Origin: Bacteroidales bacterium
GTDB taxonomy: Bacteria > Bacteroidota > Bacteroidia > Bacteroidales > ML635J-15
Direction of reading: 5' to 3'
NCBI GenBank assembly: GCA_027858835.1
Contig: JAQIBY010000102.1
Location: 1,918-65,917, forward strand
Length of the DNA stretch: 64,000 bases
In this document: positions 1-12,814 of the stretch, one piece after another
How positions within the stretch are numbered: the stretch's first letter is position 1
Layout: the number at the start of each line of letters is the position of its first letter
Made by a program: the position numbers and the translations under genes
The notes under the pieces: generated by a model
The model's input: only the letters and a program-made list of their open reading frames with translations
What the model was told of the DNA's origin: nothing
Database searches by the model: none

Positions 1-1
1 G

Positions 2-328
2 CCTGAGTATATTGGTATGGCAGCCGCTGCGGCTATCAACAAATTTCTGGAACATTCCAATCTTTTTATTGGTGATATTATTGCCCAGGCAAAATCTGCA
101 TCGCAATTCCAACACCCACTAGTCGTTATGGCTTATGGAATCGATGGAATTGGTAAATCCGCTAAGGTTTATCTCGAAGATGCTGTTTCCGGATCTCAGT
201 ATGACAAAACAATCCAAAAATATTCCGGTGGAATTGCCATTACACCGCAAACAGGAGTTATGATTAAAGTTAATGCTGGTGAAAATCTTTCATTGACAAT
301 GAAATTGTCCGCAACCTGGACATTGTAA
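2..328 (+). CDS. C-terminal fragment of an abundant structural protein (capsid-like candidate); ORF is open to the window edge
   Basis: There is no stop between nt 2 and the ATG at 17. The C-terminus is beta-rich, and the strongest intrinsic terminator of the element follows. No family is recognisable by eye. Confidence 0.45.
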   Translation, partial: PEYIGMAAAAAINKFLEHSNLFIGDIIAQAKSASQFQHPLVVMAYGIDGIGKSAKVYLEDAVSGSQYDKTIQKYSGGIAITPQTGVMIKVNAGENLSLTMKLSATWTL

Positions 329-361
329 GTCGCAACTTTAAGTTTCCAATTACATGAATGA

Positions 362-399
362 AAGCCCAGCCCCGATTTTGGGATTGGGCTTTTTTTTTA
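362..399 (+). terminator. Rho-independent terminator
   Basis: AAGCCCA (362-368) pairs with TGGGCTT (385-391), with inner CCC/GGG pairs, followed by a T9 run. Confidence 0.7.
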
Positions 400-412
400 A
401 AAAAGCAACATT

Positions 413-991
413 ATGACACACGAGGAGTTAGTAACGAGAATGAAAACAGATCCGGCATTTGTCGTTTCGTTTATCATTCAAAATAATCCAAAACGAGTTT
501 ATGAAAATATGCTTGCAAATGGCATTGTCACTTCATTGAATGCTAATATAATGTATTCGGATTTAATGAAATTTGCGGCAAAAAAACCAGACACTGCAAT
601 TGCAATTTTAAATATTCCTATCCGGGAAACCGAAGAGCAAATGCACCTTACCGAAGCAGTTAAATCTGCCGGCATTTTTAATCCGGTTAGTTCTAAAAAT
701 TCAATTTATGATGACACGTTTAATCCAGATGATGTTTTTGATGAATATGAAGATCGGCCAGATGATCCCTCCTATTTTGAAGATGAAGAAACATCCGGGA
801 ACTGGAACTGGGATTGGATCGGAAATTTCTTTGGGGCCTTGGGTGGAGCTTTTCAAGCATTTGGACCCGGTCAACAGCCGCCACAAAATGAACCTGAAGA
901 CAGCAGTTCAAAGCCAAAATCAATGACAATCATTCTCATTGTCTTGTTAGTCGTTGCAATCATTGTCGGTATGATCTTCCTAAAAAAATAA
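413..991 (+). CDS. Tail-anchored membrane protein (soluble N-domain, acidic/Pro-rich linker, C-terminal TM)
   Basis: 192-aa ORF with a C-terminal hydrophobic helix MTIILIVLLVVAIIVGMIFL followed by KK. An acidic D/E/P stretch precedes it. Confidence 0.6.
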   Translation: MTHEELVTRMKTDPAFVVSFIIQNNPKRVYENMLANGIVTSLNANIMYSDLMKFAAKKPDTAIAILNIPIRETEEQMHLTEAVKSAGIFNPVSSKNSIYDDTFNPDDVFDEYEDRPDDPSYFEDEETSGNWNWDWIGNFFGALGGAFQAFGPGQQPPQNEPEDSSSKPKSMTIILIVLLVVAIIVGMIFLKK

Positions 992-994
992 GCC

Positions 995-1321
995 ATGAAA
1001 GAAATTTTGAAAAAATCAATACCTTATGTTTTAGTGCTTGCAGTACTTGGATTTGCTTATGCATTATATGATGCTTATAAAAAATCTCGCGACAAACAAG
1101 GCTGGATTAATGGCTTAAAACAATCATTGTCCTATTACAATGAAAACACAAATGAGTGGCGAACTGCGATCGGGTGGCAAGAAGAGCTCAATGAATTTGT
1201 TCGAAAGCAGGCGGCACTACCAAAATTTGAAGCTGCCACAATACCAGAAGTTGTTAGGACTAACATTGATTGGTCCTATAACACATCAAAACCATTAGAG
1301 CGAATATTCATCAAAGTTTAA
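995..1321 (+). CDS. Small membrane protein (N-terminal TM)
   Basis: 108-aa ORF starting 4 nt after the previous stop. The helix is IPYVLVLAVLGFAYALY. Confidence 0.6.
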   Translation: MKEILKKSIPYVLVLAVLGFAYALYDAYKKSRDKQGWINGLKQSLSYYNENTNEWRTAIGWQEELNEFVRKQAALPKFEAATIPEVVRTNIDWSYNTSKPLERIFIKV

Positions 1322-1337
1322 TTAATAATCTCTCATT

Positions 1338-1439
1338 ATGAAAATGAAAACAAGGACACCAGTTTTAGTCATTGCAGGAATTGCAATTGCAGCTGTAGCA
1401 GTATGGTATTTTTTCCTACGCGAAAAAGATACTGAGTAA
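1338..1439 (+). CDS. 33-aa single-TM mini-protein (below the ORF-track cutoff)
   Basis: ATG 1338 to TAA 1437-1439. It translates as MKMKTRTPVLVIAGIAIAAVAVWYFFLREKDTE and fills an otherwise empty gap in a tightly packed operon. Confidence 0.45.
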   Translation: MKMKTRTPVLVIAGIAIAAVAVWYFFLREKDTE

Positions 1440-1463
1440 TTAACCAAAAAAAAACAGTAGCTT

Positions 1464-1592
1464 ATGGAAGCAACAAACTTTTTAATGATCCTTGCCGGGA
1501 TCTTAATTGTCGGAATGTTTTACCTGGTCCTTAAAAAACCAGAAGTAAACGTTCAATTCACAAATCCTGAAACTGAAGATAGCGATGAATAA
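1464..1592 (+). CDS. 42-aa single-TM mini-protein (below the ORF-track cutoff)
   Basis: ATG 1464 to TAA 1590-1592. It translates as MEATNFLMILAGILIVGMFYLVLKKPEVNVQFTNPETEDSDE. Confidence 0.45.
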   Translation: MEATNFLMILAGILIVGMFYLVLKKPEVNVQFTNPETEDSDE

Positions 1593-1722
1593 TGAATTAC
1601 TGTCAACTCGTGTTAATGTAGTTCTCGAAAAAGAATCAATACTTTATCTAGCCGGCTCGTTGGCAGTTGCAGGAATTATAATTATTTTATTTTGGGGTAT
1701 CATTAAAAAAATGGCATCCTAA
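1585..1722 (+). CDS. 45-aa single-TM mini-protein (below the ORF-track cutoff)
   Basis: ATG 1585 overlaps the previous ORF end by 8 nt. It translates as MNNELLSTRVNVVLEKESILYLAGSLAVAGIIIILFWGIIKKMAS, with the stop at 1720-1722. Confidence 0.45.
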   Translation: MNNELLSTRVNVVLEKESILYLAGSLAVAGIIIILFWGIIKKMAS

Positions 1723-1740
1723 AGGGTGTCATTTTTTTTT
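1711..1740 (+). terminator. Rho-independent terminator or attenuator
   Basis: ATGGCATCC (1711-1719) pairs with GGGTGTCAT (1724-1732) using two G-U pairs, with a TAAA loop, followed by a T9 run. Confidence 0.5.
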
Positions 1741-1751
1741 AAAACTTGATT

Positions 1752-1997
1752 ATGGTAAAGGTAATTGATAGTACAACTGCAGGTAGTTTGCCAATTGGGG
1801 CGAAAAAAATATACATTCAAAATTTAAGCAAAAAGGATTCTGTTGTTTTGACATTTTTGAATTCGGCAAGTGATCATCAAATTTTGCAATTGCAACAAAA
1901 TGCAATTTTGAATTTTGAATACAATCAAAATTCTTATCCGGCAATGACATTTGCCTGTAATAATGATGCTAGAATTCAAATTATAGCTGTTTATTAA
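1752..1997 (+). CDS. Small soluble beta-rich protein (vertex/penton candidate)
   Basis: The ORF track starts at TTG 1746, but ATG 1752 is more likely. There is no TM, and alternating hydrophobic beta-like segments are present. It is one of only two non-membrane ORFs in the block. Confidence 0.5.
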   Translation: MVKVIDSTTAGSLPIGAKKIYIQNLSKKDSVVLTFLNSASDHQILQLQQNAILNFEYNQNSYPAMTFACNNDARIQIIAVY

Positions 1998-2008
1998 GAT
2001 TTAGAAAT

Positions 2009-3322
2009 ATGGGATTTGGAACTAGACAAAGCATAGATAGTATATTATTACGTAATGTAATGAGTGTTGATCCGTCATTAGAACAAAATGAGGCACAACA
2101 TTTATTCAAAACTTACGCGGCTGCAAAAAAGTACATATTAGATAACTTAGATCCAGCTAGTAACACAAATAAGTATTTAATAAGGCTACCAGCTGGGGAA
2201 ATAAATGCAGCTGTTGCCGGAACGGAAATTGTCGGTGAGGAAGGTTGCGTTCATTTGGAGGCAAATATAATTCTCAGCTGTAATGATGCTACGGTAGTGA
2301 CGTGTCCACTAAAAAGTAATGGTTTAGTCGCTGATTTAATGACAGAGGGATTTAGTTATCTTTTTGCGTTTTATATTAATGGTGGGATATTTAAATCTAT
2401 TGAAGGAACCGGCAATTTATTTTCATTTTCAAATTCTTTATTGTCAGGATTTAATTTAGATTCTTGTGGTTTGTACATGAATGATATAGTTGTTTCAGAA
2501 GGATTTTCAATTGATACATTAATGTTTTTATCTTATAATTCAACTTTCGAAGAATCTTTTAGTTTATCAATTTCTAAAGATGCATTTACAAATAGATTAA
2601 TTGGGTGTAATGGAGCAATTGAACTCGTAAATCCCTCAGATACTTCCGCATATGCGGAAATCGTAGTTTACAACAGTGAAATTATATATGTTAAAAATAA
2701 TGACACTTCATATTACTACAGCTTTGACTTTAAAAATTCAAATGTTTCTTTCGATGGTGAATTTAATTTAACAGTTTATGGAGACATTCATTCTCAATCA
2801 TCCATTATTAAAATAGAAGGCGATATTGTTTTCACTAAATTTGTTTACGATTATAATGGTACTATAACATCAAATGGGTCAAATCTAACATTTGAAAATT
2901 CTGCTTATCTTTTTAATCTTGAAATTATAGATGTTACTTTAAATCTCAATAATGCAGCAGCGATAATAAATGTAAGAGGATTGCTAACTGCCAATCTTTT
3001 TAATATTACTGCTGGCATATTGAGTATTAATAATCCAGAAAAAATCATTCAAATAGTTGCCGATGCAGCAAACTATGAGGTTCTTCCCGGAACTTTGCAA
3101 TTAAATGTAGCGAATACTCCTGTCAATGCGCAAACAATAGTATTAAAAGACTATATGAAAAGCCCTCAATTGAATTTATTTATTGCAGACACTGATGATG
3201 CCAGTATAAATAACATCACAATTGAAGATGGTTTGGGAAACACAATTTATACGATAAATGCAGCTCGTGGATATGTTAATATTACTTATTCAGAAGGATT
3301 AGCTGAATTTATTGCAAAATGA
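2009..3322 (+). CDS. Large soluble N/S/T/I-rich protein (spike or receptor-binding candidate)
   Basis: 437-aa ORF with no TM. Its composition is repetitive and beta-helix-like. It is the largest protein of the visible element. Confidence 0.55.
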   Translation: MGFGTRQSIDSILLRNVMSVDPSLEQNEAQHLFKTYAAAKKYILDNLDPASNTNKYLIRLPAGEINAAVAGTEIVGEEGCVHLEANIILSCNDATVVTCPLKSNGLVADLMTEGFSYLFAFYINGGIFKSIEGTGNLFSFSNSLLSGFNLDSCGLYMNDIVVSEGFSIDTLMFLSYNSTFEESFSLSISKDAFTNRLIGCNGAIELVNPSDTSAYAEIVVYNSEIIYVKNNDTSYYYSFDFKNSNVSFDGEFNLTVYGDIHSQSSIIKIEGDIVFTKFVYDYNGTITSNGSNLTFENSAYLFNLEIIDVTLNLNNAAAIINVRGLLTANLFNITAGILSINNPEKIIQIVADAANYEVLPGTLQLNVANTPVNAQTIVLKDYMKSPQLNLFIADTDDASINNITIEDGLGNTIYTINAARGYVNITYSEGLAEFIAK

Positions 3323-3340
3323 TAATTTAATAATAAAATA

Positions 3341-3592
3341 ATGCTAAACAGTCTATTCACAAACATATTAACACCTATTGCGATAATAGGCAACGTATTT
3401 GAAACCTTCACACAAGGCAATGTGCTTTCCGGCTTGCTAGCTTGTACTGTCGCTTTTCTTGTGATAATTTATTGGATCATCAGAATACAGCGCGAGTGGT
3501 GGCATCGATCAGATGAAAGAAAAGTTCGCATACGCAAAAAACCAAAAAAAACAATCAACAAAAAACAATCAACAATAAGCAATCAACAATAA
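3341..3592 (+). CDS. Membrane protein with a basic C-terminal tail that runs into heptad array A
   Basis: 83 aa with hydrophobic segments ILTPIAIIGNVF and LLACTVAFLVIIYWII. The stop TAA 3590-3592 lies inside a CAATAAG unit. Confidence 0.55.
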   Translation: MLNSLFTNILTPIAIIGNVFETFTQGNVLSGLLACTVAFLVIIYWIIRIQREWWHRSDERKVRIRKKPKKTINKKQSTISNQQ

Positions 3593-3631
3593 GCAATCAG
3601 CAATAAGCAATCAGCAATCAACAATCAACAA
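3552..3631 (+). repeat. Heptad iteron array A (about 11 units of CAAT[C/A]A[A/G])
   Basis: Units in order from 3552: CAATCAA, CAAAAAA, CAATCAA, CAATAAG, CAATCAA, CAATAAG, CAATCAG, CAATAAG, CAATCAG, CAATCAA, CAATCAA. Then CAA and ATG at 3632. Confidence 0.95.
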
Positions 3632-4174
3632 ATGACAAAAAAACATTACATATTTATCTTAATATTAATCTCCTGGCTATTTGGGTTAGGGCTCGGTTCT
3701 TATCTTGGTGAAAAACATGCCAAAACAGAAACCGAAACAATTTATTTAGATAAAATAGTAATTGAAAAAGATACGCTGTTAATTACAGATACAGTACAAA
3801 TGCCAATCCCGGCACGAGTTGATACAGTTCAGGTATTAAGAGAATTTCACACAAAGCGAATAATTCGAGATACCGTAATAAACAACGACACAGTATTAAT
3901 TGTCATTCGTGACACCGTATATCAAAACAAAATAATTAATCGTAGAGTTGACTATCAAAATTTAATGCCAGTTCCAGTTATTTTTAAAACTGCAAATACA
4001 TTTAGTGCCGGCTTGAATTTAAACACAATTAACGGTTTTGGATATGGCCCGGCAATAAATTACAATCACCAAAAATTAACCTGTGGCTTAACCGCAGACC
4101 TTAAAAATAAAATCATTTTAGGAACAATAACAATCAAAATATTTTCCAATCAACAATCAACAATCAACAATTAG
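3632..4174 (+). CDS. Membrane-anchored protein (N-terminal TM) bracketed by arrays A and B
   Basis: 180 aa with helix YIFILILISWLFGLGLGSYLG. The ATG directly follows array A. The stop TAG 4172-4174 lies inside a CAATTAG unit of array B. Confidence 0.6.
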   Translation: MTKKHYIFILILISWLFGLGLGSYLGEKHAKTETETIYLDKIVIEKDTLLITDTVQMPIPARVDTVQVLREFHTKRIIRDTVINNDTVLIVIRDTVYQNKIINRRVDYQNLMPVPVIFKTANTFSAGLNLNTINGFGYGPAINYNHQKLTCGLTADLKNKIILGTITIKIFSNQQSTINN

Positions 4175-4255
4175 CAATCAGCAATCAACAATCAACAATA
4201 AGCAATAAGCAATCAACAATTAGCAATTAGCAATCAACAATCAGCAATCAGCAAA
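4147..4255 (+). repeat. Heptad iteron array B (15 units)
   Basis: Exact 7-bp register from 4147 to 4251: CAATCAA x3, CAATTAG, CAATCAG, CAATCAA x2, CAATAAG x2, CAATCAA, CAATTAG x2, CAATCAA, CAATCAG x2. Then CAAA and ATG at 4256. Confidence 0.95.
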
Positions 4256-4348
4256 ATGGACACTAAAAAAATAATCGAAATACTAACAATAATCACAAGC
4301 TTATTAATAGTCATAAGCTATGTAATGAAATTTTTTAGAAATGAATAA
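4256..4348 (+). CDS. 30-aa single-TM mini-protein (below the ORF-track cutoff)
   Basis: The ATG immediately follows array B. It translates as MDTKKIIEILTIITSLLIVISYVMKFFRNE. The stop overlaps the next ATG (4341). Confidence 0.45.
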   Translation: MDTKKIIEILTIITSLLIVISYVMKFFRNE

Positions 4349-4718
4349 AATAAATTTCAAAATAAAAAAACCGGTACGATTTGCGATTCTTGCGATACTT
4401 GCAGTTTTTGTAATTGCCTTAATTGCATCACCAAAATTCCGGGATAAAATAAAACAGATCTTGCACGACTTGTTATTTAATCCACTGGGGTTTGATCCGT
4501 TTGGAATGGCTGAATCAAGTACTGACAACAACGACAATGGAGACAACTCAGATGATGAATCCGGGGGAGATGATGACACGATAAATCCCGGTGATAATTG
4601 GGGAGATGCAGGCGAACAAACCCCATGTGATCCTGATTTAATTGTGAGTGAATATTATGTTGGTGAAACTTTAGTTCATGAAAATGAATGTGGTGGTATT
4701 GTAGTATTCGCAAATTAA
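4341..4718 (+). CDS. Membrane-anchored protein with an acidic D/N/G-rich ectodomain
   Basis: 125 aa with helix VRFAILAILAVFVIALIAS followed by the run DNNDNGDNSDDESGGDDD. Confidence 0.6.
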   Translation: MNKINFKIKKPVRFAILAILAVFVIALIASPKFRDKIKQILHDLLFNPLGFDPFGMAESSTDNNDNGDNSDDESGGDDDTINPGDNWGDAGEQTPCDPDLIVSEYYVGETLVHENECGGIVVFAN

Positions 4719-4730
4719 AATTAATGAATT

Positions 4731-5117
4731 ATGAAAGCAAAGTATTGGCAAGTTTTAACAGTGTTTTTAGGTGTTTTAATATCCTGGTTCGTATTTCGGA
4801 GGTATAAGGTGTATTACTTCTATTCAGTTTTGACAGGTAGTGAAACATTAAGTTTTTTCTTTAAGCCTGTTGATTTTAATTCATTTAAAGAAATTCCAAA
4901 TAATTTCAAAAATGGTGAAATAGTAACAGTTGAGGAAAACGCAACAATACCTGATGGAATTAAAAGCAAAATAGGAAGTGGTTCTGAAAGATATAAACAT
5001 TTAATTATTGCTTTTTCTGCAAGTAATTACTTTAAGTTTTATAAGGAGCTTGAGGAATATTTCAACACGAAAAAACTATTGAAGTTTAACTTTAAATTTG
5101 AAGGTGGTTATGAGTAA
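4731..5117 (+). CDS. Membrane-anchored protein (N-terminal TM)
   Basis: 128 aa with helix WQVLTVFLGVLISWFVF. Confidence 0.55.
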   Translation: MKAKYWQVLTVFLGVLISWFVFRRYKVYYFYSVLTGSETLSFFFKPVDFNSFKEIPNNFKNGEIVTVEENATIPDGIKSKIGSGSERYKHLIIAFSASNYFKFYKELEEYFNTKKLLKFNFKFEGGYE

Positions 5118-5289
5118 AACAGGATCATTTTACCTTATGATGGCTGGAACATTGTTCTTGCCGGCGGTCGCTTATCTTGTGACAACGCAATTTAAGTTAG
5201 ACAAAAACTTACAGCTTCTAATTGTCATCTTAGCACTAGCTTTAGGTGGCGCATGGAGCGCAGGAATAATTGAAAAAACGGAGGATTAA
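5098..5289 (+). CDS. Two-TM mini-protein
   Basis: 63 aa with helices FYLMMAGTLFLPAVAYLV and LLIVILALALGGAWSAGII. It overlaps the previous ORF by 20 nt. Confidence 0.55.
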   Translation: MKVVMSKTGSFYLMMAGTLFLPAVAYLVTTQFKLDKNLQLLIVILALALGGAWSAGIIEKTED

Positions 5290-5291
5290 AT

Positions 5292-5918
5292 ATGGCAGGA
5301 TTTACTATAAGAGACAGTGATTTTAAAGGTCCTTTTTTTTGGACTGTTTATCGTAATAACTTTCTTAGCAATTTTCAGAAATATTATGAAGAAAATGACA
5401 AACTAAAAACATATGAGTGGTTTAATTCAGCAAAACAAAAAGCTGATGAATTAGGTGGAAAATGGGAGGTTAAAAAAATGAACGCGGCTAATGCAGCCAG
5501 TTACTCAGGAGGTACTGAATGGTCTGTTGATTTGGTGCCTGCAATGACATGGGATGAATACAGGGCTTATCCACTTTCTTGGAAAGCTAAAAGCATAATA
5601 AAGTTATTGCATGATAATGGATTTAATTGGAATACTTATCATGCTGATTTACGACACGCGTTCAATAATTGGTCTTATGCCGGAGTTCAGTATCCAATTG
5701 ACAAATCAAATGTTGAAAATTATATAGCATCACTTGAAGATTTATGGCAAGGCATATATGAGGATGAACCAGAAAATGTAAATGCTGGTTTTCCGGATCC
5801 TGTCGACCCGCCTGGTGGAAATGATCCATCACTTTCAAACATTTTTGCAATTAAAAATTTAGTCATTGTCGGTGCAATATTTCTGGTATTGATTTTTCTA
5901 ATTTATTTATACGCTTAA
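5292..5918 (+). CDS. Tail-anchored membrane protein (soluble W/Y-rich N-domain, acidic/Pro linker, C-terminal TM)
   Basis: 208 aa. The linker EDEPENVNAGFPDPVDPPGGNDP is followed by helix LVIVGAIFLVLIFLIYLYA at the extreme C-terminus. Confidence 0.6.
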   Translation: MAGFTIRDSDFKGPFFWTVYRNNFLSNFQKYYEENDKLKTYEWFNSAKQKADELGGKWEVKKMNAANAASYSGGTEWSVDLVPAMTWDEYRAYPLSWKAKSIIKLLHDNGFNWNTYHADLRHAFNNWSYAGVQYPIDKSNVENYIASLEDLWQGIYEDEPENVNAGFPDPVDPPGGNDPSLSNIFAIKNLVIVGAIFLVLIFLIYLYA

Positions 5919-5929
5919 AAAAATAAGAT

Positions 5930-6148
5930 ATGGTGGTACTAGCAGGATTAACAGCCGCACTCGGTGGAGTTTTTAAATTTCTTAATTACAGACAACAGAT
6001 GGACGCTGCACAAACAGCCGCTGAATACGAATTGCTTGCAAGGGCACAACAGCAGCAAACTCTGAAAATAATCATCATGGGATCCGTAATGGTAATGATG
6101 ATTGTTGTAATTGGTTGGGTATTAACATCAAAAATGAAAAATAAATGA
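5930..6148 (+). CDS. Two-TM mini-protein
   Basis: 72 aa with helices VVLAGLTAALGGVF and IIIMGSVMVMMIVVIGWVL. Its stop overlaps the next ATG. Confidence 0.55.
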   Translation: MVVLAGLTAALGGVFKFLNYRQQMDAAQTAAEYELLARAQQQQTLKIIIMGSVMVMMIVVIGWVLTSKMKNK

Positions 6149-6966
6149 AAAAGATTTTAAAATTTATTTTGCCGGTTATTATTCTGGCAATTGTCATTAT
6201 TGCGAAAATAAGCATTAGTGACAATGAGGCATTGATTGTTAACAGGCAATCAGATCCGAATTTACGTGTATTAGTCGTTGCCGGTCATGGTGAACAAATT
6301 AATTCATCATATCAAACAGCTGGTAAGCAATCCCCGACATGGGAAAACGGATTAAAAATTTACGAGGGCATCTCTAATAAGGATCTGGCTGAAAATTTAG
6401 TGATAAAATTAAAACATGCCGGCATTGATGCGCAAATCATAAATCCGGAGCTTCGAGATATAAGTTTACAAGCTCGCATAAATCGTATAAATACAATATA
6501 TAGTTACGATAAGCGATCAATAGCAATTTTCCTGCATCACAACGCACAAGCTTACAATAAAACAGCTGATTATTTTGATAAACAAAACTTATACGGCTGG
6601 ACATCAGCAGAGATAGGAGGTGCAACCGGCACGGAAATTTTCACAAGTAAAGGATTTACAAAAGCCGATCAGATTGCAAAATACATAGGAAATTCAATCA
6701 GCAATCAACAATCAGCAATTAGCAATCTAAAATTCCGCGGATTAAAAGAAGCGAATTTCTTTGTTTTAAAATACACATCTTGTCCTGCAGCATTGCTTGA
6801 ATTTGGCTTTATGACAACAAAGGTTCCTGATTGTATGGTGATCTCTGATTCGTTACACAGAGAAATTTATTTGCAATCAATAGTCTCCGGATTAAAACAA
6901 TATTCAAACTCAATCAGCAATCAACAATTAGCAATCAACAATCAACAATTAACAATTAACAATTAA
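6145..6966 (+). CDS. Membrane-anchored N-acetylmuramoyl-L-alanine amidase (Amidase_3-like), carrying array C internally and array D at its 3' end
   Basis: N-terminal helix ILPVIILAIVIIAKI. The amidase-3 landmarks are VVAGHGE, AIFLHHNA and ANFFVLKYTSCPAALLEFGFMT. The stop TAA 6964-6966 lies inside a CAATTAA unit. Confidence 0.75.
   Translation: MKKILKFILPVIILAIVIIAKISISDNEALIVNRQSDPNLRVLVVAGHGEQINSSYQTAGKQSPTWENGLKIYEGISNKDLAENLVIKLKHAGIDAQIINPELRDISLQARINRINTIYSYDKRSIAIFLHHNAQAYNKTADYFDKQNLYGWTSAEIGGATGTEIFTSKGFTKADQIAKYIGNSISNQQSAISNLKFRGLKEANFFVLKYTSCPAALLEFGFMTTKVPDCMVISDSLHREIYLQSIVSGLKQYSNSISNQQLAINNQQLTINN
6695..6729 (+). repeat. Heptad iteron array C (5 units), inside the amidase coding sequence
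   Basis: The units are CAATCAG, CAATCAA, CAATCAG, CAATTAG, CAATCTA. They are read through in frame as SISNQQSAISNL. Confidence 0.9.
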
Positions 6967-6984
6967 CAATTAACACTCAACAAT
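6911..6984 (+). repeat. Heptad iteron array D (10 units)
   Basis: The units are CAATCAG, CAATCAA, CAATTAG, CAATCAA x2, CAATTAA x4, CACTCAA. Then CAAT and ATG at 6985. Confidence 0.95.
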
Positions 6985-7275
6985 ATGAACCAAATAATTC
7001 ATCAATCAGGCACAGGAAAAGCAACCTATGAAGGAGATCTTCATCCAGATGCTGTACTTATTACCGAAGGTGAAGACGGCCGGGAATACGAGGTTGGACC
7101 AGTTTTTATTATTGACGGTCTTGATGATTACGTACCTCCTATAGATCCTGATGATCAAGAGCCAGGCTCTGATGAAGATGAACCTGCTGCTAAAATTTCA
7201 CCAACTATGATTCTTATAGGTGGTGGTATTTTGCTTGCACTAGGTGTTGCAATTTATTTCATTACAAAAAAATAA
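6985..7275 (+). CDS. Tail-anchored membrane protein (small N-domain, acidic/Pro linker, C-terminal TM)
   Basis: 96 aa. The ATG directly follows array D. The linker PPIDPDDQEPGSDEDEP is followed by helix MILIGGGILLALGVAIYFIT. Confidence 0.6.
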   Translation: MNQIIHQSGTGKATYEGDLHPDAVLITEGEDGREYEVGPVFIIDGLDDYVPPIDPDDQEPGSDEDEPAAKISPTMILIGGGILLALGVAIYFITKK

Positions 7276-7341
7276 TGAAATAATGGAAAACAGAACCACA
7301 AATAAAAGCGAAAATAAATGAGATATTAAAAACAGAGACTT

Positions 7342-7779
7342 ATGAAACTCATGAACATGCAAAAGTCATATATCGTCGGCTTTGTGCTTATTGTAATTAT
7401 TATTGCAGTGGCATACTTTTCGGGTAAGAGCAAAGGATCAGAAGATTACCCTGAATTTCCTGTACCTGATGATACTCCAGGTAGTACAATCAATTTAGAT
7501 CAGGCAAAAGTGCAACGTATTGCGGTAGGTTTGCATAATGATTTGGATAGTTTCTTTTTATTTGAACGTTACAATACTTCGCTTTGGCAGGAATTTGCAA
7601 GTAGTTCTGATACTGAGTTTGTTGCTATTTACAATTATTTCAATGATAAATGGTATGCAGACAAAAGTAAAACGCTGCGCGAAAGGATTGAGTCGCGGCC
7701 AATCTCATGGTTTAGTGGCATATTGCGTACAACTATAGCTATGATCCTACAACGTTTAACACGCTTAAATTTAGTGTAA
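7342..7779 (+). CDS. Membrane-anchored protein (N-terminal TM)
   Basis: 145 aa with helix YIVGFVLIVIIIAVAYFSG. Its stop overlaps the next ATG. Confidence 0.55.
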   Translation: MKLMNMQKSYIVGFVLIVIIIAVAYFSGKSKGSEDYPEFPVPDDTPGSTINLDQAKVQRIAVGLHNDLDSFFLFERYNTSLWQEFASSSDTEFVAIYNYFNDKWYADKSKTLRERIESRPISWFSGILRTTIAMILQRLTRLNLV

Positions 7780-8135
7780 TGGATAAAAAAAACTACATAT
7801 TCATTGGTATTGCAGTTGTCTTAATTGCTGTAGTTTATTTAAGGTTCCTGAATAACACCGGTTCATCTAGCAATAATCAACCTAGCAATGATCAACCTGA
7901 CAATAATCAAACTTGTACCAATCCAACTACATGGGTTACAACTTCATTTCCATTACAACTAGGAGTTGCTAACAACTATGTAAAATTGCTTCAATTGAAT
8001 TTAAACGACAATTTTAATGCTGGGCTTAATCCTGATAAAAAATTTGGCTGCAATACCCAAGCTGCATTAATGCAGTACACCGGTAAATCTAAAATTAGAT
8101 CAGCACTAGAACTTTACATAATTATTGATTCCTAA
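7779..8135 (+). CDS. Membrane-anchored peptidoglycan-binding-domain protein (PG_binding_1-like)
   Basis: 118 aa with helix YIFIGIAVVLIAVVYL and a Q/N/P linker. The C-terminal segment VKLLQLNLN...PDKKFGCNTQAALMQY resembles the PG_binding_1 pattern (V..LQ..L ... DG.FG..T..A...FQ). Confidence 0.5.
   Translation: MDKKNYIFIGIAVVLIAVVYLRFLNNTGSSSNNQPSNDQPDNNQTCTNPTTWVTTSFPLQLGVANNYVKLLQLNLNDNFNAGLNPDKKFGCNTQAALMQYTGKSKIRSALELYIIIDS
7871..7915 (+). repeat. 15-bp x3 in-frame tandem repeat in the linker of the PG-binding protein
   Basis: The units are CAATAATCAACCTAG, CAATGATCAACCTGA and CAATAATCAAACTTG. They encode NNQPS/NDQPD/NNQTC. The CAAT..TCAA core echoes the heptad motif. Confidence 0.8.
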
Positions 8136-8163
8136 TTATATTTATGAAAAATACAAAGAAATA

Positions 8164-8781
8164 ATGAAAGCTGGAACACGTGAAATATTAATAGCCATAG
8201 GCATTAGCATAGCTTTTGCCGTGGCTTACTATTTTTGGTATTCCAGAAAATTGCATCCATTATTGCGCAGGAAAACAACCGGCACCGAAAAAGATGAATA
8301 CATTAAAAAGCTTGAAAGTGTATCACGCAATTTGCGTATTAATCCTAATGCCTTGTGGCTTGTTATCAATTCAGAAAGCCGGCACAATCCCGGAGCCATA
8401 AATCCGTACAACGGGGCAACCGGTTTAATTCAATTTGTGAATTCAACCGCGCAAACACTCGGCACAAGCTTCAGCGCATTACGGCAAATGTCGCGAATCG
8501 ATCAGCTGGATTATGTTCAGTCATATTACAAAATGTTCAAGCGCGCCAGCAATTATTCCGATTTGTATTTAACAACCTTTTATCCCTATGCTTTAGGCAA
8601 GCCGGATAGTTACATATTTGGATCAGAAGTTTCACCGGCCAGAGTTGCCATAATAACAGCTCAAAACCCATTTGATGAAAATGGAGATGGTGAAATAACC
8701 ATGAAAGAATTTAAAACATTTGCCAGGAAACAAATTGTGGCAGGTGTAGTTCCAAAATGGTTTGAATATTTATTAATGTAA
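8164..8781 (+). CDS. Membrane-anchored lytic transglycosylase (SLT domain)
   Basis: The ORF track begins at TTG 8125, but in-frame ATG 8164 avoids overlap and starts MKAGTREILIAIGISIAFAVAYYFWY (TM). The SLT signature is INSESRHNPGAINPYNGATGLIQF (E-S ... G-L-x-Q). Confidence 0.7.
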   Translation: MKAGTREILIAIGISIAFAVAYYFWYSRKLHPLLRRKTTGTEKDEYIKKLESVSRNLRINPNALWLVINSESRHNPGAINPYNGATGLIQFVNSTAQTLGTSFSALRQMSRIDQLDYVQSYYKMFKRASNYSDLYLTTFYPYALGKPDSYIFGSEVSPARVAIITAQNPFDENGDGEITMKEFKTFARKQIVAGVVPKWFEYLLM

Positions 8782-8841
8782 ACGAAATGGAAATAAGAAA
8801 TGAAAGGCAAATAAGCCTACAATTTTAATAAACAATTTTAT

Positions 8842-9198
8842 ATGGAAAAATATAAATTAATTAAAAATACATTTGTATATAAAAGCAACCCACATCCAAC
8901 AGGAGATGCAGACTTAACAATAAAAGTTCGTAGCATTGCAAAAGATACAACTGTTAACGTTTCTGCTGAAGGTAATATTATTAGATCTTGGTCATCAACA
9001 CCAATATTGTATATTGTTGATAGCATTGGCATTCCCGAATTTATTCACAAGTCAGATGTTGTTCTTATGGCATCAGGTTCACAAGATGACAATGCCCACG
9101 TTGGAACAGAGAGTGTTCCATTAATGGATAAGCTCATTGCTAAAATCAGAACTTATGTATTGGAAGGCGAACCAAAACAATCAAAGTTAAACTTTTAA
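8842..9198 (+). CDS. Soluble hypothetical protein
   Basis: 118-aa ORF with no TM and no recognisable motif. Confidence 0.5.
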   Translation: MEKYKLIKNTFVYKSNPHPTGDADLTIKVRSIAKDTTVNVSAEGNIIRSWSSTPILYIVDSIGIPEFIHKSDVVLMASGSQDDNAHVGTESVPLMDKLIAKIRTYVLEGEPKQSKLNF

Positions 9199-9208
9199 AG
9201 AATTCATC

Positions 9209-9382
9209 ATGAAAAAACAAAGTGAAAACCATTATGATATTGCCTATAAAACTAAAAGTGGTAGAATGATGGTTGCAAAAAATATTTCTGGTATCAATGC
9301 AAATGCTGCAAAGGCAAAGCTAAAAAAGCAAATGCGCAAATCATCTAGTTTCGACAGTATAATTACTGCTGTTAAGGTGTAG
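9209..9382 (+). CDS. 57-aa basic soluble mini-protein (below the ORF-track cutoff); small DNA-binding candidate
   Basis: ATG 9209 to TAG 9380-9382. It translates as MKKQSENHYDIAYKTKSGRMMVAKNISGINANAAKAKLKKQMRKSSSFDSIITAVKV. It is K/R-rich with no TM. Confidence 0.4.
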   Translation: MKKQSENHYDIAYKTKSGRMMVAKNISGINANAAKAKLKKQMRKSSSFDSIITAVKV

Positions 9383-9424
9383 AACAATAAAAATTACTAT
9401 ATTTATAAACTAAAATTAATTCTT

Positions 9425-9748
9425 ATGAGCAAATACAAAGTCAGCTGGTTGATATTGCTACCAGAAAAAGGAAAAGCAACAAAAAGAGAGGTTTCTATTA
9501 TCAACAAAAAATGTCCTTATCATGGGTTTGGCATTATTGGACTGGATAAATATATGATAGGAGGGCATTTCCCAAGTAAAAAAGAAGCTGAAAAATGCTT
9601 GCCTAAAATTAAAGGATTGGGAAAGCCTTATCGTGCATACATTATAACAGATGCTCAGTTTGGTAGTATGAAGATTGATCATGCAACAGGTTTGAATAGT
9701 CTATTTATTACAGGTAGGCAAAAAAAAGCAAGTAAAATTATCAAATAA
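9425..9748 (+). CDS. Hypothetical protein
   Basis: 107-aa basic ORF and the last gene of the rightward operon. No recognisable motif. Confidence 0.5.
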   Translation: MSKYKVSWLILLPEKGKATKREVSIINKKCPYHGFGIIGLDKYMIGGHFPSKKEAEKCLPKIKGLGKPYRAYIITDAQFGSMKIDHATGLNSLFITGRQKKASKIIK

Positions 9749-9754
9749 AAAAAA

Positions 9755-9817
9755 GTCCACATGATCGGTTTTTGTTGTGACAACATTTGAAAGCAAATCA
9801 CAATTGATCATGTGGAC
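9755..9817 (-). terminator. Perfect 12-bp inverted repeat with a nested hairpin; probable terminator between convergent operons
   Basis: GTCCACATGATC (9755-9766) pairs with GATCATGTGGAC (9806-9817). The 39-nt loop contains TGTTG-TGA-CAACA. The A8 run on the + side gives a T8 run after the stem on the - strand. Confidence 0.5.
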
Positions 9818-9926
9818 GCTGCAAGTGTAATACTTTTATTTTTGTTTTACAAGTTTTCTAGTGTAAAATGATTGAATTCGGTTGTAAAATCAATATTTTC
9901 CTTCCGGGTTATTACATTAATTGTTA

Positions 9927-10346
9927 TCAGTCAACAGCATAAATTGAATTTTTACGGCGGATATAATCATTTAGAATCGCTTCGTAGTTATCAACTCTCA
10001 TACTAGATCGACCTGTCAAATAGTCTGAAATCGTTGCCTGTCTAATATTAACTTTTTTTGCAATCGCTGCTTGATGCTCTAATGCCATTGACTGTTTTAA
10101 TAATTCACGCATATCAATTTTGTTTTGACATGTCGTAAGATTAAAAACAAATTTAATCAAAGGGCTGTCAATTATAGGTACCGGGGATTCTAGTTTTTTA
10201 TTTGCATTAGTCATCGCGAGTAAGTCCAGGGACAAATTCAAAACAGCAACTAACTCATGATCATCACGAGAAAATTCAGCCCCGTGATCACGTAAACCTT
10301 CAAGCTGTATTATAGCTTCTGATAATTGTTCAAATATTTCCATCAT
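9927..10346 (-). CDS. XRE-family helix-turn-helix regulator (HTH at the C-terminus)
   Basis: The segment HQAAIAKKVNIRQATISDYLTGRSSMRVDNYEAIL fits the Cro/C1-type HTH pattern. The gene lies in the lysogeny module next to the integrase. Confidence 0.65.
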   Translation of the reverse strand: MMEIFEQLSEAIIQLEGLRDHGAEFSRDDHELVAVLNLSLDLLAMTNANKKLESPVPIIDSPLIKFVFNLTTCQNKIDMRELLKQSMALEHQAAIAKKVNIRQATISDYLTGRSSMRVDNYEAILNDYIRRKNSIYAVD

Positions 10347-10393
10347 TTAAAATTTTGTGCCGGACTTATCCCGAAGGTGCCAGCGGTTAATGT

Positions 10394-10768
10394 TTAGTCC
10401 TCAAATAATTCGAGGTTTAAAATAGTATCTTCAATGGACTCCTCTATGTGCTGTGTATAACCACAAGCATCAAAGTCCATTTCTTCAATATTGTCATAAC
10501 CAAATTCCTCTGGACTTGGCGTTTCATGATCTTTAATTGTGTAAAAGCAATTGTCGCTTAGTTGCTGCTGTCCTAAGTAGTACAGATAATCAACAGTTAA
10601 TTCGTTTGTTTCTTCGTCAATCTTAAAGAAAAATGTCCTGTTAGCTAAGTCGCCACTTAAAGTAGTAGGCATTATTTCTAATGTTTTTTCAACTAATTCA
10701 TCTTTTCTTGTTTTTAGAATTTTTAAAGTTTCCATAATATTGTTTTTTTTAATGTTACAAAATTCCAT
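10394..10768 (-). CDS. Highly acidic small protein, first gene of the leftward operon
   Basis: 124 aa, or 113 aa from the internal ATG at 10735 (METLKIL). The C-terminal half is very D/E-rich (EEFGYDNIEEMDFDACGYTQHIEESIEDTILNLELFED). Confidence 0.5.
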   Translation of the reverse strand: MEFCNIKKNNIMETLKILKTRKDELVEKTLEIMPTTLSGDLANRTFFFKIDEETNELTVDYLYYLGQQQLSDNCFYTIKDHETPSPEEFGYDNIEEMDFDACGYTQHIEESIEDTILNLELFED

Positions 10769-10797
10769 TTGGTACGATTGATATCAGATTACAAATA

Positions 10798-10846
10798 TAC
10801 GGTATTGCGTAATGAAAACCAAATAAATTTTACGGTTTAGCGTAAT
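10798..10846. promoter_or_regulatory. Two operator-like 16-bp direct repeats in the divergent promoter region
   Basis: TACGGTATTGCGTAAT (10798-10813) and TACGGTTTAGCGTAAT (10831-10846) match at 14 of 16 positions. Each holds a TACG/CGTA half-palindrome. The centre-to-centre spacing is 33 bp. Confidence 0.45.
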
Positions 10847-10986
10847 TTGAAAGGATTCTAAATAAAAAAATACTGCAAAAACTGGCATGAGACTGACATA
10901 AAGCAAGAAATGAAATTTGTCAATAAGATTGGTTTGTAGTCTGGCAGGGAAATTGTATATTTACAGCAAATCAAATCGAACAAACT

Positions 10987-11484
10987 ATGAAAACAATCAA
11001 GATTTTAACCGTATTTGTCATTTTAATGGCTTTATTTTCATCATGCAAGGATGAGTATGTAGAGGTTGAAAAACCTAAAATTTACCGCTTTGAATACGAA
11101 GCAGAGGACTGGGAGTGGGAGTATAATGATGATAAAACTGTGCAATTTCACGAAGTCCGAAATTCAGTTACCGCAAATGTGCGAGCTAATTATTTAATAT
11201 TTTGCTATGTCAAAGCAAGCGGATCAATGTATCAAATGCCTTTTTCAACGAATTCACTTAGTTATTATTTCGTTTTTGAAGATTACGACATGGGTTTAAT
11301 AAAACAAACATTAGACGGCTATGTATGGACTCAAAAAAGTGATGAAGATTTTGTAATATACATTATGGATCCCGAATACACTGAAAATCTCAATGTTCAA
11401 TCTGAAAAATCAGTGATTGAATTTTTATCAAAAGAATTTCCACAGGATGTTGAAATCTTAAATGAAGTGAGTTTAGTCAATTAA
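10987..11484 (+). CDS. Lipoprotein of unknown function (prophage moron candidate)
   Basis: The signal peptide plus lipobox is MKTIKILTVFVILMALFSSC. The gene has its own promoter region and converges on the integrase with a 12-nt overlap. Confidence 0.6.
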   Translation: MKTIKILTVFVILMALFSSCKDEYVEVEKPKIYRFEYEAEDWEWEYNDDKTVQFHEVRNSVTANVRANYLIFCYVKASGSMYQMPFSTNSLSYYFVFEDYDMGLIKQTLDGYVWTQKSDEDFVIYIMDPEYTENLNVQSEKSVIEFLSKEFPQDVEILNEVSLVN

Positions 11485-12579
11485 AGATATTTGATCTTTT
11501 AAAGTCAAATCAACTAATCGGGAGTACACTAGCGTACTCTCGATTTTTTTGTGACCTAAAAGGTTTTTTAGCGCAAACAAATTCCCACCTCTATTCAGGA
11601 AATAAACAGAAAATGAATGCCTGGCCGTTTTCGTACTTATCGGCTTGTCAATTCCAGCAGCTTTAGCAATTTTCTTTAATTCCCGGTTAATATATTGATC
11701 TGAAATGTTTTGAAAAATAGAACTTTTAGTATAAACATCCGGTACATATTTTATAGCTCTATTTGCGATTGGAATATTAAGTGATTTGCTTGTTTTTTGC
11801 ATTTGTACATTAATCACTTTTGCATCAATCATTTGTCCTGTAACTTTGTTCCAGTCGCTGTAACGCAGGCCCGTAAAACAAAAGAACAAAAACATTTGTA
11901 GTATGTCTCGGTGAAAACCGGCCGGCATGTTTACAAAAAATGTTTCAAGTGATTCCAATTCCAAAGGTGTTAAGTAAACCGGATCTTTATCAATCTCATG
12001 AATTTTATAATCACTAAACGGATTTTTCCTTAAATAACCTTTTCGGATTGCCAGGCCACAATACTTTTTCAGGAAACGAAATTTCGTGACAATAGCATTA
12101 TGTGAGTTTCCCCGGTCCTGTAAAAATGTATAAAGTTCATTAATCCAGCTGTAGGTTATTTTTGAAAAATAAACCGGTTTATCATACTCATGTATAACAT
12201 TCAAATTAGACTTGTGGCGTTTAATTGTTCCCCAGGCATAATGATGACTATTTTCAATATGATCTTTATTCATTAAGAATTCAACTGTTTTTGTGTTGTC
12301 ATTAAAAAGCCTAGTAAATATTTCAGAAATTGAAAGTGATAATTCATTAACTTCAATATCTGCCTGAATTTGATTAAGTTCAAGTTGTATTTTTTGCAAC
12401 TTCAAATTATTAATTGTTGTTAATTTTGATTTTCCTATGAATTTTTGTTGGTCCTGGTTCCAGTCATCCGGGTTAATATCTGAAACAATTTTTTGCTGTG
12501 ATCTTTTGCTATTAATTGAAACAGCCAGTAGTATATTACTATGCTTGCCGCGAGTGTCTATTCTGAATTTATATTTCAT
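11473..12579 (-). CDS. int: Tyrosine-type site-specific integrase
   Basis: Catalytic-domain landmarks are CFTGLRYSDW, ARHSFSVYF and LLGHKKIESTLVYSRL (R...H-x-x-R...H...Y). The gene is adjacent to the tRNA 3' end. Confidence 0.85.
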   Translation of the reverse strand: MKYKFRIDTRGKHSNILLAVSINSKRSQQKIVSDINPDDWNQDQQKFIGKSKLTTINNLKLQKIQLELNQIQADIEVNELSLSISEIFTRLFNDNTKTVEFLMNKDHIENSHHYAWGTIKRHKSNLNVIHEYDKPVYFSKITYSWINELYTFLQDRGNSHNAIVTKFRFLKKYCGLAIRKGYLRKNPFSDYKIHEIDKDPVYLTPLELESLETFFVNMPAGFHRDILQMFLFFCFTGLRYSDWNKVTGQMIDAKVINVQMQKTSKSLNIPIANRAIKYVPDVYTKSSIFQNISDQYINRELKKIAKAAGIDKPISTKTARHSFSVYFLNRGGNLFALKNLLGHKKIESTLVYSRLVDLTLKDQISLID

Positions 12580-12586
12580 AGGTTCG

Positions 12587-12662
12587 GTGTCGTTTCAATA
12601 TTTAGCTTGTTGCAGACTTGTTGCAGTATTGTTGCAAAAACCGTCTTATTTAGTGTCGTTTC
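12587..12662. promoter_or_regulatory. Candidate arm-type recombinase/RDF binding sites in the att-proximal arm
   Basis: TTGTTGCA occurs three times at exact 11-bp phasing (12607, 12618, 12629). GTGTCGTTTC occurs twice (12587-12596 and 12653-12662), 66 bp apart. Confidence 0.45.
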
Positions 12663-12696
12663 GTTGTCATTGGGAACGCTTGGCTTCTAACTAAAA

Positions 12697-12739
12697 CACT
12701 GAAAACCATATAATTTAATGATTTTCAGTGCTTTCAGTG
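12697..12739. repeat. Inverted plus direct TTTCAGTG repeats abutting the tRNA 3' end (candidate core-type att sites)
   Basis: CACTGAAAA (12697-12705) pairs with TTTTCAGTG (12722-12730), followed by CTTTCAGTG (12731-12739) directly before the tRNA discriminator position. Confidence 0.45.
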
Positions 12740-12814
12740 TGATCCAGCCAGGGCTCGAACCTGGGACCTACGGCTTAGAAGGCCGTTGCTCTAATCCAAC
12801 TGAGCTACTAGACC
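12740..12814 (-). tRNA. tRNA-Arg (anticodon TCT)
   Basis: The reverse complement folds as a cloverleaf. The acceptor GGTCTAG/CTGGATC has two G-U pairs. The D-arm is GCTCAGTTGGATTAGAGC. The anticodon stem ACGGC/GCCGT carries the loop CTTCTAA. The T-arm is CCAGGTTCGAGCCCTGG. CCA is not encoded. Confidence 0.9.

Follow-up and report, generated by a model that had tools for sequence, protein, structure and literature searches.

Heptanucleotide repeat arrays at gene junctions of a Bacteroidales prophage are candidate Shine-Dalgarno-independent leaders

A 64,000-nucleotide (nt) stretch of contig JAQIBY010000102.1 from a Bacteroidales bacterium (hereafter the window, to which coordinates refer unless another contig is named) carries part of a prophage whose small genes are punctuated by tandem arrays of a 7-nt unit. 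Arrays were called with Tandem Repeats Finder and a unit parser. Tandem Repeats Finder returned period-7 calls at 3550-3631, 4147-4254, 6695-6727, and 6911-6984, and the parser resolved these blocks into array A (3552-3628, 11 units), array B (4147-4251, 15 units), array C (6695-6729, 5 units), and array D (6911-6980, 10 units). The total is 41 units with the consensus CAAT[C/A/T]A[A/G] in four arrays, all on the + strand. An initial annotation, made from the letters alone, had described this same set, and both methods confirmed it. Its unit census was likewise reproduced exactly: CAATCAA (x16), CAATCAG (x8), CAATAAG (x5), CAATTAG (x5), and CAATTAA (x4), with CAAAAAA, CAATCTA, and CACTCAA as the remaining three units. 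The unit hardly varies at positions 1-4 and 6, and position 7 is the sole site of G, as had been noted. Three consecutive CAATNAR units, with up to one mismatch, matched 33 times in the window, every match falling on the + strand within the four blocks, versus 0 matches in 100 dinucleotide-preserving shuffles. No run of three or more units occurs outside these blocks on either strand of the whole 64 kb, in agreement with the earlier remark that the host part holds nothing comparable. A CRISPR array, which the annotation had already discounted, was rejected: the units are contiguous and there are no spacers.

The prophage extends beyond the left edge of the window. Two independent metagenome contigs, L050 (14.8 kb) and L051 (10 kb), match window positions 1-12793 at 99.2-100% identity and carry two more arrays to the left, on the same strand as A-D, which the initial annotation missed. 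Array E (L050:128-162, corresponding to L051:894-928) has 5 units and ends 4 nt before the ATG (L050:167) of a 72-amino acid (aa) open reading frame (ORF). Array F (L050:742-797, corresponding to L051:1508-1563) has 8 units and lies in frame within a 262-aa ORF. The whole count known is six arrays on a single strand in approximately 9 kb of phage DNA and 0 in 51 kb of adjacent host DNA. Two assemblies made independently from other samples have arrays at the same positions, which excludes the assembly artefact that had been raised as a possibility.

The arrays are closely fitted to the genes around them, a same-strand run of small ORFs that are mostly hydrophobic. Array A, with a trailing CAA, spans 3552-3631 and runs up to the ATG (3632) of a 180-aa ORF (3632-4174, + strand). 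It encodes the C-terminal residues and the stop codon (3590-3592) of the preceding 83-aa, membrane-like ORF (3341-3592, + strand) and holds one stop per frame. As first described, the 180-aa ORF is bracketed by two arrays: its start comes directly after A, and B contains its final 9 codons together with the stop codon (4172-4174). Array B, with a trailing CAAA, spans 4147-4255, closes all three frames, and leads to the ATG (4256) of a 30-aa hydrophobic ORF (4256-4348, + strand). Array C (6695-6729) sits in frame within a gene for an N-acetylmuramoyl-L-alanine amidase (Amidase_3; 6145-6966, + strand), where it encodes SISNQQSAISNL. The amidase assignment rests on Pfam PF01520 (E = 2.3e-16), matches to amidases in the PDB, and a homolog alignment. 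The same gene ends in array D, which with a trailing CAAT spans 6911-6984, encodes the last 18 amidase residues and the stop codon (6964-6966), closes all three frames, and runs up to the ATG (6985) of a 96-aa ORF (6985-7275, + strand).

Of the six arrays, four (A, B, D, and E) stop 3-4 nt short of an ATG (3632, 4256, 6985, and L050:167, respectively), and no Shine-Dalgarno site lies between array and start at any of them. The stop codon of the preceding ORF falls inside A, B, and D; array E has no upstream ORF and contains no stops. The unit variants differ in what they do to reading frames. Neither CAATCAA nor CAATCAG puts a stop codon into any of the three sense frames; 14 of the 17 units of other sequence (CAATAAG, CAATTAG, and CAATTAA) create TAA or TAG. 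Through these units, A, B, and D are closed in every frame, in the L050 and L051 versions as well, and the in-ORF arrays C and F contain one stop each, out of frame. No ATG, GTG, or TTG occurs within any of the six arrays. The initial annotation had the register and placement of the arrays right; it missed the in-frame position of C in the amidase gene, the geometry of start and stop codons at A, B, and D, and the closure of three frames without ATG, GTG, or TTG.

At the RNA level, the arrays are rich in A and C and poor in G (A 46-57%, C 22-31%, T 12-22%, G 2-9%) over lengths of 35-109 nt. The predicted minimum free energy is -1.1 to -6.3 kcal/mol for segments of 116-146 nt spanning A, B, or D together with the start codon, and -2.4 kcal/mol for 86 nt around array E. 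Array RNA folds no better than shuffled sequence, and the start codons are unpaired in the prediction. Among the host genes of the window, 2 of 34 have a Shine-Dalgarno-like 4-mer, and host leaders are enriched in A at -15 to -10 and also at -6 and -5, a pattern expected of Bacteroidia. Promoter-like sites (sigma-70-like and Bacteroidetes TAnnTTTG) and terminator-like sites around the arrays occur at chance level only, and no sigma-70-like or TAnnTTTG match lies within ~700 nt upstream of any array. The arrays thus seem to lie within a polycistronic unit. Unstructured RNA between cistrons might also recruit Rho, with polarity as the result whenever the upstream ORF goes untranslated. Rho-utilisation (rut) sites typically combine a high C and low G content with a lack of structure, and the length, C and G contents, and predicted lack of structure of the arrays fit such tracts. 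We judge this very improbable, as A rather than C dominates the composition and the arrays abut start codons, where initiating ribosomes would cover them.

We compared the three near-identical copies of the element (window, L050, and L051) and then homologs at ≤54% identity. The arrays are hypermutable, with unit number and order shifting between copies that are 99% identical. In L050, array A has four additional units (+28 nt) and array D one additional CAATTAA unit (+7 nt). Array A of L051 has its units in another order, 13 in all and including CACTCAA, CACTAAG, and CAATTAG, and takes the place of 62-64 nt at the 3' end of ORF 3341-3592. ACA microhomology is present at the junction of this rearrangement, and the ORF is shortened from 83 to 57 aa. 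Flanks of the variable arrays are 99.2-99.9% identical between copies, and about 3 of 6 insertion or deletion (indel) events are concentrated in roughly 3% of the alignment. The three copies do not differ in arrays B, C, E, and F. The changes in unit number in A (+4) and D (+1) lie downstream of the in-frame stop and alter no protein. The final 17 nt before each ATG are constant in all variants, while the array interior varies.

This pattern bears on the proposal in the initial annotation that the arrays are slipped-strand contingency tracts or recombination joints flanking gene cassettes. Polymorphism in unit number among 99%-identical copies upholds the slippage component; on/off switching and cassette joints are not seen in these variants, as the observed changes alter no ORF, C and F are invariant, and clusters of single-nucleotide polymorphisms (SNPs) are not bounded by arrays. 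The SNP patches between the near-identical copies (5361-5369, 5480-5521, and 5643-5683) all fall in ORF 5292-5918, whose 208-aa product could be hypervariable or recombined. Recombination joints at the arrays were rejected as a candidate, since the SNP clusters at 5361-5683 sit within one ORF and not between arrays. Like the contingency loci of Haemophilus and Neisseria, the arrays are slippage-prone tandem repeats with a unit that is not a multiple of 3. Phase variation would then operate by gain or loss of 7 nt, switching or tuning genes through a frameshift in C or F, through C-terminal tails, or through leaders. The 7-nt-step length polymorphism is real, a change in C or F would shift the frame of an enzyme, and the L051 rearrangement does truncate ORF 3341-3592. 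Such a role nevertheless seems quite unlikely. Arrays C and F, where a frameshift would matter, are the same in all three copies, the units gained in A and D fall past the in-frame stop, and none of the variants causes an on/off frameshift. No array extends into the ORF downstream of it, and these ORFs are never shifted because each ATG is outside its array.

Unit number and order differ between the 99%-identical copies, and relatives at ≤54% identity are array-free. A 437-aa protein encoded at 2009-3322 has homologs that are 35-47% identical in crAss-like (Crass_capsid) and other tailed-phage contigs (L052, L053, and L055), and none of these contigs carries the arrays. A protein database search with this query returned only two near-identical contigs and the three distant, array-free tailed-phage contigs, and IMG/VR yielded no relatives of the protein. 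Arrays are also absent from the contigs of amidase homologs (≤54% identity) and of homologs of the 262-aa protein (≤49% identity). Given that distant relatives are array-free, the arrays appear to be young, lineage-specific, and fast-evolving.

The same heptamers recur in other genomes. Three consecutive CAATCAR units were found in 49 IMG/VR stretches with a GC content of 0.22 to 0.69 and in at least 120 stretches in GTDB genomes; the mixed pattern CAATCAR-CAATWAG-CAATCAR was found in at least 120 stretches in metagenomes. CAATCAA-type arrays occur in Stigonema, Fischerella, and Microcoleus among the GTDB matches listed. Two composition-matched, stop-free heptamers, CAAATCR and CATACAR, served as controls and gave 20 and 16 IMG/VR stretches, making CAATCAR 2.5-3 fold commoner. 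Orientation was assessed with crude ORF calls (first ATG, ≥70 aa) by counting arrays ≤30 nt upstream of a start in the sense and antisense directions. The counts were 28 sense versus 8 antisense for viral and GTDB sequences together, 12 versus 2 for viral sequences only, 6 versus 0 for CAAATCR, 6 versus 0 for CATACAR, and 21 versus 12 for the metagenome set, which is mostly high-GC. Sense arrays bunch at 0-19 nt from the start, and antisense arrays are evenly spread over 0-150 nt. Because the controls behave like CAATCAR, the start-proximal bias looks composition-driven (A/C-rich, G-poor, sense) and not sequence-specific. A sequence-specific, phage-specific element was dropped as a candidate, with controls only 2.5-3 times rarer and showing the same behavior. 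The class of arrays is also not uniform, since many inverted pairs occur in high-GC genomes.

These counts weigh on another possible reader of the repeats, a sequence-specific RNA-binding regulator. Under this explanation, a Csp- or S1-like OB-fold protein would bind cooperatively, one per unit, and co-regulate the genes that the arrays mark. The arrays are all on the same strand at ribosome-loading sites, five unit positions (1-4 and 6) hardly vary, and CAATCAR exceeds the controls in viral contigs. A comparable proposal exists for the TAACTGA repeats discussed below, for which S1, Csp, or CsrA have been suggested as readers, and CspB binds one protein per heptamer (PMC4679880). We consider such a regulator unlikely for the prophage arrays. 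The controls show an equal start-proximal sense bias, which speaks for composition, no protein with a CSD or S1 domain was found by Pfam in the part of the element seen, and arrays occur within ORFs as well.

Additional features of these wider searches deserve mention. Among the 80 titled GTDB matches listed, in an undefined order, 26 were from Acidobacteriota, 15 from Bacteroidota, 12 from Cyanobacteria, and 0 from Bacillota. In L009, L011, L034 (IMG/VR contig 3300037424_002340), L012, L022, and L063, a TTGATTG-type array faces a CAATCAA-type array to give long inverted repeats. These pairs could form hairpins, and some precede a Shine-Dalgarno site and ATG, a different use of the heptamers. 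L014, an IMG/VR contig of 220 kb with a GC content of 0.29, has CAAACAA/CAATCAG arrays at 5260-5301 and 6966-7028 on the same strand. Both are preceded by an identical 50-nt block, as if a promoter-and-leader module of a large phage had been duplicated.

A DNA-level role was also weighed, as the initial annotation had suggested a cooperative binding array for an omega-type ribbon-helix-helix (RHH) regulator or centromere binder. The omega protein of inc18 plasmids is of the RHH type and has the heptad consensus WATCACW. Contiguous 7-bp direct repeats are common to the prophage arrays and the omega operators, and the rephased unit AATCA[A/G]C matches 5 of the 7 positions. This reading is not supported: consensus positions 6 (C) and 7 (W) do not match, and the arrays occupy non-promoter sites, in direct orientation only, in unrelated genomes. 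Identical arrays lie at ~300 unrelated loci in many phyla among the matches listed. Pfam searches found no RHH, omega, ParB, or Rep domain (E up to 1 for small ORFs and up to 0.01 for others) in the part of the element at hand, with hidden Markov models being weak for very small proteins. The six sites are scattered through the operon, in ORF tails, and in ORF interiors, with promoter- and terminator-like sites at chance level, and double-stranded DNA binding needs no strict orientation on a single strand. Replication-origin iterons were rejected in the same way: instead of clustering at one origin, the arrays are spread over six sites in ~9 kb amid genes for membrane proteins and lysis, and the Pfam searches gave no Rep domain. 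DNA iterons of either kind are highly improbable, and the evidence points to a composition-driven role at the RNA level rather than a sequence-specific DNA iteron.

We propose that the arrays serve as Shine-Dalgarno-independent intercistronic leaders, a reading suggested by their anatomy to which we assign a probability of roughly 0.5. Of the functions offered by the initial annotation, unstructured CA-rich leaders are the best supported: 4 of the 6 arrays abut starts, the arrays are unstructured in prediction and start-free, host genes have few Shine-Dalgarno-like sites (2 of 34), and a sense bias is present near starts; leader function itself is putative. In a Bacteroidales host, ribosomes would ignore Shine-Dalgarno sequences, and the start would be set by low structure, upstream A, and scarcity of AUG. 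The arrays may then act as junction cassettes in which the upstream ORF terminates within the array in any frame that slippage sets. A 30S subunit, perhaps via S1 or a Csp-like OB-fold protein, would load on the open array runway, and with no competing start codon in the runway, initiation would take place at the first AUG. Slippage would alter the length of the runway and may thereby tune expression. The in-frame arrays C, in the amidase, and F, in the 262-aa protein, would be by-products, generated through the same expansion or conversion.

Several observations weigh against leader function. The function is deduced from anatomy, an A at -3 is present in just 2 of the 4 start-proximal arrays, and three-frame closure is statistically weak when taken alone (chance roughly 0.1-0.2 by our own estimate). 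Two of the six arrays, C and F, have no start codon after them. The arrays are unconserved, being missing from homologs at ≤54% identity and from the tailed-phage contigs with a 437-aa homolog, so the downstream genes evidently function without them. The orientation counts depend on crude ORF calling, and high-GC metagenomes, where inverted pairs are many, show only a weak bias (21 versus 12). A sense bias may also signify tolerance and not benefit, as the antisense unit TTGATTG carries TGA and TTG and could do harm.

The same observations make it possible, if rather less than probable, that the arrays are neutral or selfish microsatellites. They would be born by slippage and kept only where harmless, at junctions, in C-terminal tails, and in surface loops, with no benefit to the phage, and the strand would be fixed by the TGA and TTG of the reverse complement. 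The array-free relatives, the absence of any ORF change from the A and D differences, the two in-ORF arrays that no start codon follows, and the modest deficit of the controls in IMG/VR (49 versus 20 and 16 stretches) are all consistent with this explanation. Heptamers are, moreover, over-represented among simple sequence repeats, which has been ascribed to polymerase slippage (PMC4692102). Mere tolerance accounts less readily for other features: six arrays of one dialect in ~9 kb of phage DNA with 0 in the adjacent 51 kb of host DNA, the 3-4 nt spacing to ATG at four of the six, and the bunching of sense arrays at 0-19 nt before starts against an even antisense distribution. The invariance of the ATG-adjacent 17 nt next to a variable interior, and the concentration of stop-bearing units in arrays that follow ORFs, likewise argue against it.

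The proposed leaders resemble known translational enhancers in composition. A/C-rich, unstructured enhancers include the CAA-rich omega leader of tobacco mosaic virus and CA multimers in Escherichia coli. Like these and like Bacteroidetes starts, the arrays are G-poor, A/C-rich, unstructured, and placed directly upstream of the start; neither the enhancers nor Bacteroidetes starts are 7-nt tandem or hypermutable, and enhancement by the present arrays is putative. As repeats, the blocks are heptanucleotide simple-sequence-repeat arrays of the same general kind as the cyanobacterial STRR repeats and the TAACTGA repeats. STRR repeats are heptamers, and they and other heptameric long simple sequence repeats were reportedly described by Mazel in 1990 and Mrazek in 2007; a review is available (PMC4692102). 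They share with the prophage arrays a tandem, intergenic arrangement, length variation in close relatives, lack of conservation in distant ones, and sometimes inverted pairs. STRR repeats differ in unit sequence, with G-rich ones discussed as quadruplex formers, and they are not reported to be consistently associated with start codons. According to published rules, initiation in Bacteroidetes depends on weakly structured mRNA, adenines upstream, and few AUGs close to the start (PMC6847099).

The statement in the initial annotation that no described element looks like this was too strong, since start-proximal heptamer repeats are known, including in Bacteroidetes (PMC4679880), and heptamers are over-represented among simple repeats generally (PMC4692102). 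The closest precedent is the TAACTGA direct repeats (MacGregor 2015) of marine Beggiatoaceae, Cyanobacteria, and five Bacteroidetes (PMC4679880). These are mostly intergenic, forward, and a few nt from start codons, often across the upstream stop, with three-frame stops, no Shine-Dalgarno site, no predicted structure, 7-nt indels between strains, and occasional in-ORF copies (PMC4679880). The prophage arrays correspond in their perfect 7-nt register, forward and start-proximal placement, overlap with the upstream stop, three-frame stops, and 7-nt strain indels. They also have in common the lack of a Shine-Dalgarno site and of predicted RNA structure, the presence of some in-ORF copies, and a function that is proposed only. 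The TAACTGA unit itself holds stops, unlike the arrays here, which combine CAATCAR with stop-bearing variants; the arrays agree with this kind of element in all features tested but the unit sequence, and belong to another repeat family. Arrays of 5-15 units in a prophage also differ from the mostly 2-6 units of a chromosome-wide set, and those described here are translatable in the sense orientation, with two actually in ORFs. A full-text search of the literature for the repeat strings found nothing relevant on CAATCAA/CAATCAG arrays. The kind of element is already known; the arrays described here add a CAATCAR-type repeat in a prophage, with informative natural variants.

The in-frame arrays demonstrate that arrays can overwrite or extend coding DNA. 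At the site of array C, 18 amidase homologs (≤54% identity) have an unrelated segment of ~9 residues, and the array C peptide is found in no homolog. The same 18 homologs end before the tail encoded by array D. In a structure model of the amidase (mean predicted local distance difference test score of 87; helices at 173-187 and 189-192), the array C peptide is placed where a surface helix ends and in the loop that comes next, and the array D tail is modeled as a helical extension. Array F corresponds to a 13-residue insert relative to homologs of the 262-aa protein. The closest homolog, P0076 (46-49% identical; L339:1240-1275), has AAATCAA AATTCAA AAATAAG at this site, encoding INQNS, and other homologs have nothing there. 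The P0076 sequence is possibly a decayed array; if so, the F site would be older or recurrent. In-frame arrays are probably tolerated because every sense frame of CAATCAR is open and encodes polar peptides of Q/S/N/T/I/A.

If the leader role is true, it shows how a phage of a host that ignores Shine-Dalgarno sites can design gene junctions from a hypermutable repeat, and the long-noted, unexplained excess of heptamers in bacteria would gain a concrete, testable function. The finding would be an ordinary one if the arrays are merely tolerated microsatellites. The system is compact, with six arrays in ~9 kb and natural length variants at hand, and the overwritten coding DNA (the amidase, the 262-aa protein, and the L051 variant) offers a small, clear case of repeats creating protein segments. 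Extending leader function further, A/C-rich heptamer arrays might form a general, portable, and self-renewing intercistronic module in phages and bacteria of low-Shine-Dalgarno lineages, a generalization that we regard as unlikely. Such a module would join a frame-independent stop to an AUG-free and structure-free runway, engage S1/Csp-type OB folds at approximately one domain per heptamer, use slippage as a heritable dial on expression, and overwrite coding DNA into new tails and loops.

In L052 and L055, small ORFs and an Amidase_3 gene come after the 437-aa homolog, and the 437-aa gene, the small ORFs, and Amidase_3 suggest a common host-recognition or lysis cassette. An SLT-domain gene (8125-8781) lies on the same strand as the arrays in the same run of ORFs. 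A tyrosine integrase (11473-12579, - strand) with Arm-DNA-bind_5, SAM_5, and Phage_integrase domains adjoins a tRNA gene (12740-12814, - strand), and the two mark the right end of the prophage. Searches of PHROGs and Pfam assigned no function to most proteins of the element, and Rfam at gathering thresholds matched only the tRNA, with no known RNA family at the arrays. On the left, an att repeat of the tRNA was not found in L051:1-1000, the left sequence at hand. A crAss001_48 (Sequestin) family gene at L051:130-321, upstream of the region covered by the window, indicates that the element reaches further left, and L050 and L051 diverge upstream of the common sequence AACTACGAAATAAAAGCC.

Three other repeats were noted in the window. 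At 7867-7910, ORF 7779-8135 contains a period-15 repeat, CTAGCAATAATCAAC, that codes for a linker rich in N, Q, S, and P, SSNNQPSNDQPDNNQT. Pieces reading CAATAAT and CAATGAT occur within this repeat, which may have begun long ago as a heptamer array and become fixed in frame. An 18-nt direct repeat occupies 8780-8815, where a gap separates ORFs 8125-8781 and 8842-9198. On the host side, 27-nt tandem repeats are present at 59318-59454.

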